64,000 nt of DNA from a virus (IMGVR_UViG_3300034105_002625:25437-89436), one strand, 5' to 3'. Positions 4,133 through 25,558 are shown, counted from the stretch's first letter. Notes: generated from the sequence alone by a model not told the origin. Numbers and translations are program-made.

Positions 4133-4996
4133 ATGTCTAAAAAACATGTTGTAGTATCCTTAAGTGGAGGAATGGACTCAAGTACTTTATTACTTAGATG
4201 CCTAAAAGAGTATGACACAGTTACTGCTATTAGCTTTGACTATGGTCAAAAACACAGAGTAGAGCTAGAGAGAGCTCAATCATTGGTAAACTATATTGGA
4301 GAAGAATCATCATCACAGACTGAATTACGTTATCGTCAAATTAAACTAGACGGATTAGTTGATCTATTAGATTCAGCTTTAGTAACTGGGGGTAAAGATG
4401 TACCAGAAGGTCATTACGAGCAAGACAATATGAAAGAAACAGTTGTTCCTAACAGAAACAAGATGTTCGCTTCTATTGCTCAAGCAGTAGCTTTATCGGT
4501 TGCAAATCGTACAGGAGAGACTTGTGATATTGCAATGGGAATTCATGCAGGTGATCATGCTGTTTATCCAGACTGTAGACAAGAATTTAGAGATGCAGAT
4601 GATAATGCCTTCAGAATGGGTAACTGGGATGCTGAAAGAGTAGGTTATTTTACACCTTATCTTGATACAGACAAATTCGGTATCTTACAGGATGGAGAAG
4701 TTTTATGTAAAGAGTTGTATTTAGATTTTGATGAAGTTTATTCAAGAACTAATACTTCTTATAAACCAATATGGATACCAGGACCTGAAAGTAAATCAAG
4801 AGTAGAAGAAACTCACAGAACAAAATGGGGTGAATGGTACTCAGATTATAAATCAGCATCTTCAGTAGAACGTATCGAAGCATTTATCAAACTAGGAAGA
4901 AAAGATCCAGTTGCTTATGCAGACGAAACAGGACCAGTAACATGGGAAGTAGCAAGAGATGCAGTTCAAAAAGTATTAACAGAACATAATAATTAA
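4133..4996 (+). CDS. queC: QueC-like 7-cyano-7-deazaguanine (preQ0) synthase homolog, atypical (no C-terminal Zn-Cys cluster, ~60 aa C-terminal extension)
   Basis: PP-loop SLSGGMDSS near N-terminus; QueC-like YPDCRQEF and TPYLDTDK motifs; CxxCxxC zinc ribbon of canonical QueC not present. Confidence 0.7.
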   Translation: MSKKHVVVSLSGGMDSSTLLLRCLKEYDTVTAISFDYGQKHRVELERAQSLVNYIGEESSSQTELRYRQIKLDGLVDLLDSALVTGGKDVPEGHYEQDNMKETVVPNRNKMFASIAQAVALSVANRTGETCDIAMGIHAGDHAVYPDCRQEFRDADDNAFRMGNWDAERVGYFTPYLDTDKFGILQDGEVLCKELYLDFDEVYSRTNTSYKPIWIPGPESKSRVEETHRTKWGEWYSDYKSASSVERIEAFIKLGRKDPVAYADETGPVTWEVARDAVQKVLTEHNN

Positions 4997-5000
4997 GATC

Positions 5001-5450
5001 ATGAATGAAACGACAACAACCTTAAATGGTTATTCAGGAACAACAACAAGTAACCACTCGGGAATAACCACAGGCCTCTATACAGGTAACATAGGAATGG
5101 GAACCTGTAATCCCTCTGAAAGACTAACAGTATCGGGTAACCACTCTAATGGAATAGGAGCAATAGGTACAGCGGTAACACCGGGATTACAATTATCAGG
5201 AAATGCAACAATTATTTATTCAACAAATCAATTTCAAAATAACATGACACCAAAACAAGTAAACGTAGCAGTATTCACAATCACAAGAGATGAAGATACA
5301 AATGAAATCAATTCAACTAAATTCTTAAAAGAATTATGGATTGAACAAAAAAACGGAACATCAATTGATTTATTAGTTGCAAAACAATTAGGAAATGATT
5401 TTGATCCTGAACTTACTATTATTAAAACTCTTTCTATAGTAAATTTCTAG
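5001..5450 (+). CDS. hypothetical protein (Thr/Gly/Asn-rich N-terminus)
   Basis: 149 aa ORF. Confidence 0.3.
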   Translation: MNETTTTLNGYSGTTTSNHSGITTGLYTGNIGMGTCNPSERLTVSGNHSNGIGAIGTAVTPGLQLSGNATIIYSTNQFQNNMTPKQVNVAVFTITRDEDTNEINSTKFLKELWIEQKNGTSIDLLVAKQLGNDFDPELTIIKTLSIVNF

Positions 5451-5515
5451 TAAAAAAGTTGGAGAAGTAAATTAAAGTTCGTATATTTAAGTATTATTAA
5501 TAAAAGTAAATAAAA

Positions 5516-5677
5516 ATGAAAAAAGTATTTTTAACATTAGCCTTAGTGGCTTTAGTGGCAGTAAGTTGTAACAAGGTGACTCCGTCATCAAAATTAACAA
5601 CAGTAGATTCAACAGCAGTTCAAACTGATTCAGTATCAGTTGACACAGCTGCAGTAGATACTACAACTGTAAAATAA
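5516..5677 (+). CDS. small lipoprotein candidate (53 aa)
   Basis: ATG 5516, TAA 5675; MKKVFLTLALVALVAVSC lipobox-like signal; preceded by promoter box at 5478. Confidence 0.3.
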   Translation: MKKVFLTLALVALVAVSCNKVTPSSKLTTVDSTAVQTDSVSVDTAAVDTTTVK

Positions 5678-5887
5678 AACACCCCCCAGTAGATAGGTCC
5701 GCCAAGAAAGTCTTTAAACAACGTGGGAACTGCGGCTCTCCCAATGTGGCTGGAATGTTTTATAAAATACCAATGCTCGCTGTTAATTGATGATGGTGTT
5801 AAACGGATGAAAAAGGGTTTATAGTAATCTAGAGTACAAGCAAATCATCAATCAGAAACCCTGAAAGACCAAGGTTGGTAAAAAAAG

Positions 5888-5972
5888 AATAGGTTGGTGT
5901 CAACGGGAAAGTTCCTGCTAGGGTTAACATGGACGATAAGTCTGGATGAAGGTTCGAATCCTTCACCTATTC
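5888..5972 (+). tRNA. isolated class-II (long variable arm) tRNA-like gene, anticodon unresolved (possibly GCT/Ser-like), followed by genomically encoded CCA
   Basis: perfect 7-bp acceptor AATAGGT/ACCTATT; canonical T-arm GAAGG-TTCGAAT-CCTTC; variable-arm hairpin GGAC-GATAA-GTCT; 3' ...C-CA; anticodon stem is weak. Confidence 0.35.
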
Positions 5973-6017
5973 CAAATTTTAAGATTACCGTTCTTTGAAT
6001 TTAAAAAAAACAAAACT

Positions 6018-23489: not shown

Positions 23490-23824
23490 ATTTTATAACA
23501 GGACTACTGTACGGTATATTAGCACAAATATTTACATTCATACAATTGCAAGGACAGTTTAGATGGGAATGGGCTAAGTCTCATCCATTTATGATGTCAC
23601 TTATGGGTATACCTTTATCTCTCCTATACTTAGGATCAGTCAAACATATGGTAGCACATTTTGATGGACAGCTTTGGCCATCACGTCTTCTAGGCTTTGC
23701 AATAGGGGCAATAGTTTTTACAGCAATGTCTTGGATGTGGTTCAAAGAACCAATGACTTTAAAAACTTTAATCTGCCTGGGGTTAGCACTTTGTATAATG
23801 GGCATACAATTATTTTGGAAATGA
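23486..23824 (+). CDS. membrane protein
   Basis: 112 aa, multiple TM helices. Confidence 0.3.
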   Translation: MNFITGLLYGILAQIFTFIQLQGQFRWEWAKSHPFMMSLMGIPLSLLYLGSVKHMVAHFDGQLWPSRLLGFAIGAIVFTAMSWMWFKEPMTLKTLICLGLALCIMGIQLFWK

Positions 23825-24123
23825 AAAACTTAGAAACATGTCATCACTGCGGTGAAGAAAAAGAGGATTGTTATCACGGATTTATAGCAATGTGTCTTCC
23901 AATTCCTGAAGCAGAAGCTAAGATTGAGAAGTGGGGAAGAAAAGATTGGTGGAAGAATCTAGAAAGAATAGATCTTACTCAGGATGAAATGTTAGAACTT
24001 GATAACCTTTCTTACTACGATCAACTGTTAAATACAGTTGGAAAAGGAGTTCAGTGCAATGACTGCGGAAAGAAAGAAGCAGAGCTATATAAAAAATATT
24101 ATCCAGAAAATTTGGAATCTTAA
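23821..24123 (+). CDS. small Cys/His-rich protein (start adjusted to internal ATG)
   Basis: MKNLETCHHCGEEKEDCYHG…CNDCGK zinc-binding-like; ORF-track upstream extension overlaps the previous gene. Confidence 0.3.
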   Translation: MKNLETCHHCGEEKEDCYHGFIAMCLPIPEAEAKIEKWGRKDWWKNLERIDLTQDEMLELDNLSYYDQLLNTVGKGVQCNDCGKKEAELYKKYYPENLES

Positions 24124-24130
24124 AATAAAT

Positions 24131-24147
24131 TTCGTATATTAATGCTA
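24131..24147 (+). promoter_or_regulatory. promoter box TTCGTATATTAATGCT abutting an ATG (leaderless candidate)
   Basis: box ends at ATG 24145 of a 58-aa TM ORF (24145-24320). Confidence 0.35.
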
Positions 24148-24321
24148 TGAGACAATTAAATAATCACATCAAAGAAGTTATGGAAATAACTCCTACTAAG
24201 AAATCAACTGCACCTAAGAAGGTAAAAGTGAAAACAGACTACACTAAATCCATTGTTTGGATTAGTGCAGGAGCAATCACAGTATTGCTATGGACAATAA
24301 TTTACAACTTAATATTTTAAT

Positions 24322-24783
24322 ATGAAATTTCAATCAACAAAAGTATTTGATGGATACTCTACAGTATTTCGTCAATGGAGAGCAGAAGGTACTCATTGTA
24401 GTTTTCTTCACGGTTATGGCATTTCTTTCAAAATTATATTTGAAGGAGACCTAGACGAAAGAAACTGGGTGTGGGACTTTGGAGGAATGAAAAGAGCTAA
24501 GAACACTATTGATGGTATGGCTCCTAAAGCATGGATGGACTATATGTTCGATCATACATATATCATTGCATTAGATGATCCTTTTCTATATAAAGCACAT
24601 GCAATGCACGACGAAGGTATAGCTCAAGTCCGGGTAGTTCCAGCTACAGGAGCAGAACAATTTGCAAAATTTATTTATGATAAAGTATCTGAGTTTATTA
24701 AAATTGAGACAAATAATAGAGTAAGAGTAGAGAGTGTAGAATTTAAAGAACATAGTAAAAACTCAGCAATATATGGAGAGTAA
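24322..24783 (+). CDS. queD: QueD-like 6-carboxy-5,6,7,8-tetrahydropterin synthase (PTPS fold), with non-canonical metal-site residues
   Basis: 153 aa; C-x3-H-G-Y (CSFLHGYG) in place of canonical C-x3-HGH; GWVWDFG typical of PTPS family. Confidence 0.6.
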   Translation: MKFQSTKVFDGYSTVFRQWRAEGTHCSFLHGYGISFKIIFEGDLDERNWVWDFGGMKRAKNTIDGMAPKAWMDYMFDHTYIIALDDPFLYKAHAMHDEGIAQVRVVPATGAEQFAKFIYDKVSEFIKIETNNRVRVESVEFKEHSKNSAIYGE

Positions 24784-25558
24784 ATTGAAAAGAATAGAAG
24801 ATTATAACAAAACACTTCCCATTGTAGAGCTTTATACAGCAGTGCAATCAGAAGGAAGTAGAGCAGGCTATCCAACGGTAGTAATCAGAACAACAGGCTG
24901 TACTCACAGATGTTGGTTTGGTGATGGTGGATGGTGCGACAGTTGGTACACCAGTATTCATCCTGAAAAAGGACATATTAGTTTCCAAGACATCATAAAC
25001 ATGTATGATGCAAATCCTCACATCACAGAGATGATGTTAACAGGAGGATCACCTACAATGCATCCAGCATTAGTAAACGAATTAACACATTTTGCACATG
25101 AAAGAAATATTTTCATTACGATTGAGACCGAAGGAAGTCATTTTCTTGAAACGGATTACCCAATTAATCTATTATCAATCTCCCCTAAGTTTTCTAACTC
25201 TGTCCCTAAGGTTGGTATTCTTACACCTCAAGGAGATGTGGTTGACGATAAAATGGTTAAGCAACACAACAAATTAAGACTTAACTTTGATGCAATGTCT
25301 AAATCAATTTCATATCATTCTGACTATCATTTAAAGCCAGTATGGGATGGAGAGGATCAAGAAGCATTGAAAGAGATATTAGGATTAATAAAAGTTCTAG
25401 ATATACCTCAGGACAAAGTCTGGTTCATGCCAGCAGGAGATTCAAGAGAGGCTTTATTCAAATCATATCCAAAAATGTTTGATTGGGTGAGAGATAATGG
25501 TTATAGATTAACCTGGAGACCTCACATCATTGCATTTGAAGACCAAAGAGAAGTATAA
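24773..25558 (+). CDS. queE: QueE-like radical SAM 7-carboxy-7-deazaguanine synthase
   Basis: 261 aa; Cys cluster CTHRCWFGDGGWC (Cx3Cx7C spacing); TIM-barrel-like size; in operon with QueD-like. Confidence 0.6.
   Translation: MESKLKRIEDYNKTLPIVELYTAVQSEGSRAGYPTVVIRTTGCTHRCWFGDGGWCDSWYTSIHPEKGHISFQDIINMYDANPHITEMMLTGGSPTMHPALVNELTHFAHERNIFITIETEGSHFLETDYPINLLSISPKFSNSVPKVGILTPQGDVVDDKMVKQHNKLRLNFDAMSKSISYHSDYHLKPVWDGEDQEALKEILGLIKVLDIPQDKVWFMPAGDSREALFKSYPKMFDWVRDNGYRLTWRPHIIAFEDQREV

Follow-up and report, generated by a model that had tools for sequence, protein, structure and literature searches.

Modification of phage DNA with 7-deazaguanine bases is an already known pathway, and phage immuto_2-6A is the closest cultured relative of the virus studied here. 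According to Table 1 of PMC10516641, dG is absent from immuto_2-6A DNA and fully replaced by fdPreQ1, and passages of the same paper state that DpdA3 phages modify their DNA completely; the main-text passages searched label the synthesis enzymes as QueC, QueD, and QueE and make no mention of deviating cofactor sites. Other bases have been found elsewhere, e.g., dPreQ0 in Mycobacterium phage Rosebush and, at ~16.5% of G, in Iggy, and 100% dDG, derived from CDG, in phiST. Every QueD or QueD2 enzyme characterized so far strictly depends on a metal and has an unbroken HGH motif. The crystal structure of QueD2, a "low-zinc" CPH4 synthase paralog (PMC9894224), revealed H28, H30, and H68'', but not the N-terminal His, as metal ligands, and the enzyme is metal promiscuous with a ~100-fold higher activity with Fe(II) (PMC9894224, PMC11672702). 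The QueE proteins of Bacillus subtilis and Escherichia coli share the cluster motif Cx3CxΦC, and a Cys4 zinc site is kept by the QueC proteins of Rosebush and B. subtilis as well as by QatC, whose function is severely reduced when the four cysteines are mutated to Ala (PMC13639016).

The window, i.e., the whole stretch of 64 kb of viral DNA that was analyzed, belongs to a large aquatic phage with three working-looking enzymes of deazaguanine base synthesis, each of which carries a conserved change in its metal or iron-sulfur site. The ORFs of these QueC-, QueD-, and QueE-like proteins, located in a preliminary description of this DNA, were confirmed, and all three products score below the NCBIfam equivalog cutoffs. 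HGY-type QueD, zinc-less QueC, and Cx3Cx7C QueE found no mention in the literature searched; the changes are apparently undescribed and are of moderate interest for enzymologists.

Gene content of the cluster

The window and immuto_2-6A share the same seven-gene set and gene order, with queC located ~12 to 20 kb upstream of the other cluster genes in both phages. Protein identities amount to 76 to 83% for QueC, 86% for QueD, 95% for QueE, 87% for DpdA3, 91% for DpdN, and 81% for QueF. The two are different phages, with a nucleotide identity of only ~88% over parts of queC. All features lie on the plus strand. Downstream of the queD and queE genes, the cluster contains a phosphoribosyltransferase-domain protein (positions 26628 to 27023; Pfam PF00156), which has the same position in immuto_2-6A, and a type IA GTP cyclohydrolase I, FolE (27095 to 27805; PF01227, 154 bits), whose translation exhibits the Cys/His/Cys zinc ligand motifs CSHH and C-x2-C. 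A MazG/PRA-PH-like pyrophosphohydrolase (28067 to 28591; PF01503) follows; a MazG-like gene is also present within the phiST cluster. The DpdA3-type DNA guanine transglycosylase (28783 to 29577; PHROG 19058), named after the nomenclature in the relevant passages of PMC10516641, has only three cysteines and lacks a CxCxxC motif, in contrast to the zinc site conserved in bacterial DpdA and TGTs. The predicted preQ1/dPreQ1 formylase (29730 to 30257; Formyl_trans_N) corresponds to immuto_2-6A protein YP_010114479, which is designated DpdN in a passage of PMC10516641. The last two genes encode an AAA_28/nucleotide-kinase-like protein (30233 to 30784; PF13521), annotated as thymidylate kinase in immuto_2-6A, and a bimodular preQ0 reductase, QueF (30786 to 31712; QueF_N and QueF), with the catalytic Cys and the QueF motif retained (ESKSIKLY and C-R-V-T-N-Q-P-D-W). 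The set for fdPreQ1 synthesis (the four preQ0 genes together with QueF, DpdA3, and DpdN) is complete, and no second copy of QueC, QueD, or QueE was detected within the window.

Cofactor sites of the three enzymes

The QueD-like protein (24322 to 24783; 153 amino acids [aa]; PHROG 2389) is a predicted CPH4 synthase that matches Pfam PTPS with 50.9 bits (cutoff, 22.4). Its reported C-x3-H-G-Y in place of the zinc-ligating Cx3HGH signature was recovered as C26-S-F-L-H30-G-Y32. Only one of the canonical three His ligands is left, since in the family HMM F16 stands opposite the zinc ligand His16 of E. coli QueD, in addition to Y32 opposite His33. Both replacements characterize the family: the Tyr is invariant in the alignment (48/48), Phe replaces the N-terminal His in 45 of 48 members, and the motif is kept in 120/120 metagenome homologs. 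CxxxHGY is found in 133 of the best 150 cluster representatives (≤50% identity), and CxxxHGH in none of them. The catalytic residues are retained, with C26, D77-H78, and E143 opposite C27, D70-H71, and E110. A PTPS T-fold is predicted by the AF2 model (pLDDT 97), which also has the short Cys-bearing helix of QueD/PTPS-I, and the top Foldseek matches were 3JYG, QueD, and QueD2, with PTPS also among the matches. The protein resembles E. coli QueD (4NTM) also in the three-residue spacing between Cys and His, but differs by a ~30-aa insertion.

By sequence, the closest solved relative is Acinetobacter baumannii QueD2 (7V0F), which the family profile matched best among the PDB entries, over nearly its full length (E value of 6.9e-15, compared to 3e-6 for 4NTM); at the level of the fold, 7V0F (TM score, ~0.6) does not surpass E. 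coli QueD (~0.65) or 3JYG (0.81). Common to QueD2 and the QueD-like protein are an R after strand 1 and the motifs L-D, D-F-G, F-D-H, and D-D-P, including the metal-binding F-D-H histidine, which is conserved as His78. However, QueD2 comprises 190 to 200 aa including a C-terminal extension and has a Cx4HGH motif and an invariant second-metal-site residue (Cys18 or His) between the N-terminal His and the catalytic Cys, whereas the shorter phage protein has x3 spacing with Tyr for the last His, His25 at the position of the QueD2 Cys, Trp19 at the second site (family: W, 34/48; H, 6/48), and Glu46 instead of the site-2 His45. We infer that in this large QueD2-related subfamily (F-R-Q-W...H-C-x3-H-G-Y) the ligands of the catalytic metal would be His30, either Tyr32 or His25, and, in analogy to A. 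baumannii QueD2, His78 of the neighboring subunit. If this ligand set holds, a strict dependence on zinc is improbable, and Fe(II) or Mn(II) may serve as the metal.

The QueE-like radical-SAM protein (24773 to 25558; 261 aa; Pfam Radical_SAM, 30.9 bits; PHROG 2076, E value of 8e-53), a predicted CDG synthase, overlaps the stop of the queD-like gene by 11 nt and is followed by folE 1.5 kb downstream; it is clustered with QueD, FolE, QueC, and DpdA. Its top five NCBIfam matches are all QueE models, but every score lies far below the cutoff (best, TIGR03365, 56 versus 206). The unusual Cx3Cx7C spacing noted previously was reproduced (G-C43-THR-C47-WFGDGGW-C55-D) and reflects five residues inserted into the cluster loop when the protein is compared with QueE of B. 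subtilis (5TH5). These are the only cysteines of the protein, with a Trp before the third, and the motif is kept in 119/120 metagenome homologs. With known QueE proteins it shares the radical-SAM core, the genomic coupling to QueD and, as in B. subtilis, C-D-S after the third Cys; the N-terminal QxEG, R39, GG(S)/GG-x-P, ETxG, and SPK are invariant in the window, immuto_2-6A, phiST, phiSM, and E. coli. Differences comprise ~45 extra residues around positions 140 to 190. The NCBIfam model queE_Cx14CxxC, which we take to represent B. multivorans QueE, has its insertion between Cys1 and Cys2 (x14) rather than between Cys2 and Cys3. Since the Cys2-Cys3 spacing of other phage QueE proteins ranges over x2, x6, x8, and x17, the loop tolerates insertions, and length-variable insertions at this site are recurrent. 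The three cysteines are predicted to bind the [4Fe-4S] cluster, with a Gly-rich 5-residue loop placed between Cys2 and the aromatic-Cys3 pair.

The QueC-like PP-loop ATPase (4133 to 4996; 287 aa), a predicted preQ0 synthase, scores 125 bits against Pfam PF06508 (cutoff, 22), 126.2 bits against TIGR00364 (cutoff, 150.3), and 88.6 against PRK11106 (cutoff, 378). The family blocks considered were the SGGxDS PP-loop, FxYGQ(R/K)H, VPxRN, and YPDCR, and all are present, i.e., S11-G-G-M-D-S16, FDYGQKH, VVPNRN, and Y145-P-D-C-R149, as the preliminary description had stated for the first and the last. It had also reported the absence of a C-x-C-x2-C zinc ribbon; the absence is genuine, but the QueC motif is C...CxxCxxC. 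All four cysteines of the Cys4 site are substituted (by Ser, Asp or Tyr, Ser, and Ser), and the C-terminal knuckle is devoid of Cys. In a BLASTP alignment with the canonical QueC of Rosebush (35% identity over the full length), T-N-T-S-Y stands opposite T-W-S-C-Y and K-S-A-S-S-V-E-R opposite R-C-G-T-C-V-E-R, whereas H-x-G-D-H-A-V-Y-P-D-C-R and the C-terminal V-E-R-x-E-A-F...D-P-x-x-Y-A-D are shared. The alignment to the QueC structures 2PG3 and 3BL5 stops at residue ~177. Extra length had been described as one extension of ~60 aa; ~56 additional residues are indeed present, but they are distributed over insertions at residues ~57 to 68 and ~125 to 131, a variable loop at ~212 to 236, and a tail of ~20 aa. 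A variable loop (3 to 30 aa) and a longer tail distinguish the family from Rosebush QueC, B. subtilis QueC, and QatC. The closest known counterparts are actinophage QueC and the QueC-family proteins QatC and Cap9. The zinc-less form is confined to the abundant phage clade of the window, in which the Cys replacement is invariant in 80/80 IMG/VR relatives, with identities as low as 67%; of the metagenome homologs, 118/120 conserve the motifs. The loss is not obviously neutral, given the severe impairment of the QatC mutants. The catalytic core for ATP and CDG is retained, the step from CDG to preQ0 is predicted to take place, and the zinc knuckle would be replaced by a Ser/Asp/Ser/Ser turn, presumably hydrogen bonded together.

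Function and competing explanations

The ligands are truly missing and not merely offset, as a misalignment would have implied, because their absence is confirmed by profile alignments. The variant residues are nearly invariant across their families; the deviations are fixed family signatures rather than chance occurrences. All three genes are under purifying selection, with dN/dS ratios relative to immuto_2-6A of 0.22 (QueC), 0.13 (QueD), and 0.08 (QueE), similar to those of FolE (0.16) and DpdA (0.08). The evidence favors the reading that the preliminary description had offered as a fallback, i.e., divergent but functional phage variants: the three proteins are quite probably CPH4, CDG, and preQ0 synthases of an fdPreQ1 pathway, and the deviations would represent lineage-fixed remodelling of the cofactor sites with the same reactions. 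FolE, QueD, QueE, QueC, QueF, DpdA3, and DpdN would convert GTP via preQ0 and preQ1 to a formyl-preQ1 base that replaces G after replication and protects the DNA from restriction. This final base is predicted here by analogy to immuto_2-6A, for which it has been reported. The DNA chemistry of that phage is not strict proof that the phage copies are the active ones, because queuosine is probably also synthesized by a pathway of the hosts.

The altered chemistry proposed in the preliminary description, according to which the modified sites yield intermediates or a 7-deazapurine different from those of the host preQ0 pathway, is unlikely. Scores below the equivalog cutoffs and the broken Cx3HGH signature would fit such a change, as would the phiST QueD paralog DpdL, which has a changed motif (LxxxHRHxF) and for which a different reaction has been proposed. 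However, fdPreQ1 of the relative requires CDG and normal preQ0 and preQ1, the nitrile preQ0-specific QueF is intact, QueD retains its catalytic Cys, Asp-His, and Glu, and QueC retains its PP-loop and YPDCR. Moreover, HGY-type QueD is found in phages with dPreQ0 (e.g., Iggy), dPreQ1 or mdPreQ1, dDG, and fdPreQ1, and therefore fits a common early step rather than a special product; phiST, e.g., encodes QueD and QueE of the same types as the window (63% and 75% identity, respectively). The three deviations do not covary and occur independently of one another in other phages, where they combine freely with canonical partners: HGY-type QueD co-occurs with canonical QueE and QueC in L208, with an x7 QueE and a Cys-containing QueC in L202, and with a Cx3Cx8C QueE and a canonical QueC in L209. 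The subfamily also extends to bacteria, with HGY-type QueD in soil Alphaproteobacteria in addition to Pseudomonas, Rhizobium, and Stenotrophomonas phages. The bacterial gene often adjoins folE without queE or queC nearby, so that another reaction on pterins is conceivable in bacteria.

A coordinated removal of the zinc requirement from a very-high-flux pathway in zinc-poor waters is somewhat more plausible but still doubtful. The loss of the structural zinc of QueC and of the tris-His site of QueD, which among solved structures is closest in sequence to the "low-zinc" QueD2, the lack of a TGT zinc motif in DpdA3, and the great abundance of the family in aquatic metagenomes are consistent with it; yet FolE is of the zinc-dependent IA type rather than FolE2, the variants are not phylogenetically coupled, and HGY-type QueD is also present in soil bacteria and the above-mentioned phages. 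It is conceivable, albeit with a clear minority probability, that the zinc-dependent steps of QueC, QueD (as a QueD2-derived CPH4 synthase with a His/His/Tyr or His25 site and Fe, Mn, or no metal), and DpdA3 have each been rebuilt without canonical zinc ligands in this phage lineage. HGY-type proteins would then represent a third class of CPH4 synthases with a mechanism of its own that is also encoded on bacterial chromosomes beside folE. Finally, it is highly improbable that the phage copies are inactive relics and that preQ0 or preQ1 is drawn from the host, even if all three proteins lack canonical ligands and attempts to test DpdA3 and DpdL in E. coli as a heterologous host were unsuccessful. 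Full replacement of G would presumably need far more flux than the host tRNA pathway provides, and strong purifying selection, thousands of conserved homologs with invariant variant residues, and the 11-nt overlap of queD and queE, as expected of cotranslated partners, all argue for active enzymes.

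Pathway context

The QueD-like gene (24322-24783) and the QueE-like gene (24773-25558) lie on the plus strand, which carries nearly all genes of the window (G+C content of about 34%). They share 11 nt between the QueE-like start and the QueD-like stop (24773-24783), an arrangement that suggests coupled expression through translational coupling. Downstream of the pair, genes for a phosphoribosyltransferase-domain protein, FolE, a MazG-like hydrolase, DpdA (28783-29577; 87% identical to DpdA3 of immuto), a formyltransferase (91% identical to DpdN), an AAA_28 kinase-like protein, and a bimodular QueF (81% identical to immuto QueF) were identified. 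The QueC-like gene (4133-4996, plus strand) is located 20 kb upstream of this cluster, and in immuto, the closest cultured phage relative, the QueC gene is also separated from the others. In contrast to the overlapping genes of the window, a 210-nt small open reading frame is annotated between the immuto QueD and QueE genes. A search of the window revealed no second copy of QueC, QueD, or QueE.

According to Cui, Hutinet et al. (PMC10516641), the DNA of phage immuto_2-6A is free of dG and contains 7-(formylamino)methyl-7-deazaguanine (fdPreQ1) in its place, and complete genome modification is reported there for DpdA3 phages. The pathway and its role for the phage are already published, and the system of the window is a new member; the novelty, if true, is enzymological. 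The cluster also contains a gene for a non-specific DNA/RNA endonuclease (Pfam Endonuclease_NS; 26047-26625) with an N-terminal hydrophobic leader, and this nuclease might degrade host DNA while sparing the G-free phage DNA.

QueC without zinc cysteines and QueE with an extended cluster loop

The motifs listed in the preliminary description, i.e., an intact PP-loop and YPDCR block and missing zinc cysteines in the QueC-like protein, C-x3-H-G-Y in the QueD-like protein, and Cx3Cx7C in the QueE-like protein, were all recovered. Its QueC extension of about 60 aa stood with respect to length (about 56 extra residues) but not as a single block, since the surplus is distributed over several insertions and a C-terminal tail.

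The QueC-like protein (287 aa) obtained a high Pfam QueC score. Because its HMM alignments to solved QueC structures, including that of the family profile against the PDB, end at about residue 177, comparison of the C-terminal part rests on BLASTP with the canonical QueC of Mycobacterium phage Rosebush, which aligned over the full length. This alignment places Rosebush R-C-G-T-C-V-E-R opposite K-S-A-S-S-V-E-R and T-W-S-C-Y opposite T-N-T-S-Y, so that all four zinc cysteines are replaced, namely by Ser, Asp or Tyr, Ser, and Ser. The signature T(N/M)TSY...(S/A)DYKSASSVER occurs without change in all 80 IMG/VR relatives compared, whose identities reach down to 67%, and the loop between its two elements ranges from about 3 to 30 residues. 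Among cultured phages, the zinc-less QueC was found only in the immuto group, whereas phiSM, Rosebush, and other phages have kept the cysteines. The Cys4 site of QueC and QatC has been described as conserved and structural, and replacement of the four cysteines by Ala crippled the anti-phage activity of QatC (PMC13639016); against this background, a natural family that carries Ser/Asp/Ser/Ser and is conserved and maintained by selection is unusual. If functional, the protein would represent a natural QueC without this site. A further "QueC-like" protein, from Pseudomonas phage Iggy (L006 4671-5732; 353 aa), has a C-terminal part unlike those of both the canonical QueC and the window protein.

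The QueE-like protein (261 aa) contains exactly three cysteines (positions 43, 47, and 55), and in alignment with B. subtilis QueE, five additional residues (F-G-D-G-G) separate Cys2 from the Trp-Cys3 pair; C-D-S follows the third cysteine in both proteins. The protein has also kept positions that the QueE enzymes of E. coli and phiSM share, namely QxEG, Arg39, GG-x-P, ETxG, SPK, and His251. The spacing between Cys2 and Cys3 amounts to two residues in the QueE of Iggy, Rosebush, and E. coli, six in phiSM (Cx3Cx6C; L003 6461-7177), seven in the window, immuto, phiST, and many metagenome contigs, eight in one Patescibacteria-binned contig (Cx3Cx8C; L209 6572-7249), and 17 in Campylobacter phage CP220 (Cx3Cx17C with an extra Cys at x4; L008 5980-6774). 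Since the spacing differs among phage QueEs and one of the NCBIfam QueE models takes its name from a Cx14CxxC motif, insertions in this loop are recurrent and tolerated, and the variants indicate that the radical-SAM cluster loop tolerates Cys2-Cys3 spacings of 6 to 17 residues. No description of a Cx3Cx7C QueE was found in the literature.

The HGY-type QueD and its distribution

The QueD-like protein (153 aa) carries the motif as C26-x3-H30-G-Y32. In the family HMM alignment, Phe16 faces His16 of E. coli QueD, where this residue is the third zinc ligand; of the three His ligands of the canonical site, a single one is left. A five-sequence MAFFT alignment with a 10-residue gap had suggested His25 as a possible counterpart of E. 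coli His16, which was rejected because two HMM alignments agree on Phe16 and locate His25 beside the Cys. PTPS families are set by their motifs, e.g., Cx3HGH for QueD and Cx5HGH for PTPS-II (PMC5041015), and QueD2 has Cx4HGH (PMC9894224, PMC11672702). The motif of the window protein fits none of these, and a literature search for CxxxHGH with QueD yielded nothing relevant. An assignment to DpdL, a proposed CDG decarboxylase, was ruled out by the retained Cys. DpdL is described in PMC10516641 as a QueD paralog with LxxxHRHxF.

The best match of the family profile was Acinetobacter baumannii QueD2 (7V0F; E value of 7e-15 over nearly the full length), and E. coli QueD was matched at 3e-6. In the QueD2 alignment, His30, Tyr32, and His78 correspond to QueD2 His28, His30, and His68, His25 occupies the position of the catalytic Cys23, and Cys26 retains the QueD-like x3 spacing; QueD2 Cys18 and the site-2 residue His45 are changed to Trp19 and Glu46. 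The catalytic zinc in the QueD2 crystal is bound by His28, His30, and His68'' of the opposite protomer and not by the N-terminal His, and the enzyme is metal-promiscuous with an about 100-fold higher activity with Fe(II) (PMC9894224, PMC11672702). Because QueD2 holds its zinc in this way, we infer that the metal site of the QueD-like protein has been remodelled rather than lost and may comprise His30, His78'', and either Tyr32 or His25. An AF2 model based on 33 diverse sequences adopts a T-fold (pLDDT of 97.2), with 3JYG (TM score of 0.81), E. coli QueD (about 0.65), and QueD2 (about 0.6) as best Foldseek matches; a model from a shallow alignment (86 to 92% identity) reached a pLDDT of 66.6, with values of <50 over the motif, and was set aside.

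The QueD2-like subfamily with C-x3-H-G-Y (HGY type; PHROG 2389) is large: of the 150 top-ranking representatives of 50%-identity clusters, 133 carry the motif, so that at least this number of clusters belongs to it, and F16, R17, Q18, H25, C26, H30, G31, and Y32 are conserved in 94 to 100%. It includes many phages with proven deazaguanine DNA, e.g., phiST (63% identity to the window protein), in which all G is replaced by dDG, phiSM (43 to 46%), with dPreQ1 and mdPreQ1, and Iggy, with dPreQ0 at about 16.5% of G. Further members come from many phages of Rhizobium, Stenotrophomonas, and Pseudomonas. A scan of 185,579 species genomes with an 8-sequence alignment retrieved about 346 relatives. In 37 of the best 80 loci from these genomes, FolE directly adjoins the HGY gene, and QueE and QueC are absent within 6 kb. 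On chromosomes of Microvirga, Reyranella, Aurantimonas, Bosea, and other Alphaproteobacteria, the gene is located immediately 3' of FolE, and QueE, QueC, and DpdA are all missing from the surrounding 6 kb. These loci and the cyanobacterial ones, where the gene stands alone, are together L219, L211, L213-L216, L220, L222-L223, L226-L229, L231-L232, L237, L239-L242, and L246-L248 (positions of about 5200 to 6440 in each). In the cyanobacteria Roseofilum and Hormoscilla, a lone HGY gene lies amid the housekeeping genes ahpC, purS/purQ, and trmD. The adjacency to FolE fits an H2NTP-using enzyme. The subfamily breaks the HGH signature by which every PTPS family is classified, which bears, together with the QueE spacings, on the motif-based annotation of PTPS, QueD, and QueE genes.

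Products of the pathway and metal use

Thousands of close metagenome homologs exist for each of the three proteins, and the motifs are kept in 118 to 120 of the 120 top matches per protein. The matches that homolog searches and IMG/VR scans listed for the zinc-less QueC and the x7 QueE were all close relatives (at least 67 to 78% identical). Pairwise dN/dS values against immuto of 0.22 (QueC), 0.13 (QueD), and 0.08 (QueE) are in the same range as those of FolE (0.16) and DpdA (0.08). The deviations are more than chance or decay. The preliminary description had considered either altered intermediates or products, or divergent but functional phage variants. Among the compared loci, an HGY QueD occurs alongside a canonical QueE and a canonical QueC (L208), an x7 QueE and a Cys-containing QueC (L202), or an x8 QueE and a canonical QueC (L209), and judging from these combinations the three variants are not coupled. 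Viewed alongside the fdPreQ1 in the DNA of the relative, the purifying selection, and a QueF that is intact and nitrile-specific, this lack of coupling speaks against a concerted shift in intermediates, and the altered-product reading is not supported. On the same evidence, three independent, lineage-fixed remodellings are favoured, with enzymes predicted still to make CPH4, CDG, and preQ0, although the host may contribute to preQ0. Judged from sequence, the three window enzymes belong to known kinds, of which they form variants not described before.

Zinc economy, whereby the pathway enzymes would have shed zinc ligands, is of interest as a less well supported possibility. QueC, QueD, and DpdA3 all lack the canonical ones; DpdA3, the fourth pathway enzyme to deviate in this way, contains three cysteines only and no CxCxxC...H motif, a structural zinc site that is reportedly conserved in bacterial DpdA and TGTs (PMC10164549). 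This possibility is opposed by a FolE that still belongs to the zinc-requiring type and by the absence of co-variation among the traits. The variants bear on the metal needs of a high-flux DNA modification pathway and on which enzymes, robust and possibly independent of zinc, might be chosen to produce deazapurines.

The window also contains an array of 18 tRNA genes (7271-11167) that includes tRNA-His(GTG) and tRNA-Asp(GTC), which both belong to the four tRNAs normally receiving queuosine, and is interspersed with an HNH-endonuclease-like open reading frame (9599-10105). The thymidylate synthase (20687-21967) comprises 426 aa, which greatly exceeds the usual ThyA length of about 265 to 320 aa, with apparently large internal insertions, and has an immuto homolog of the same size. 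GroES-like (101 aa) and GroEL-like (546 aa) proteins, judged from their translations only, are encoded at 34450-36398, directly 3' of a family-A DNA polymerase.
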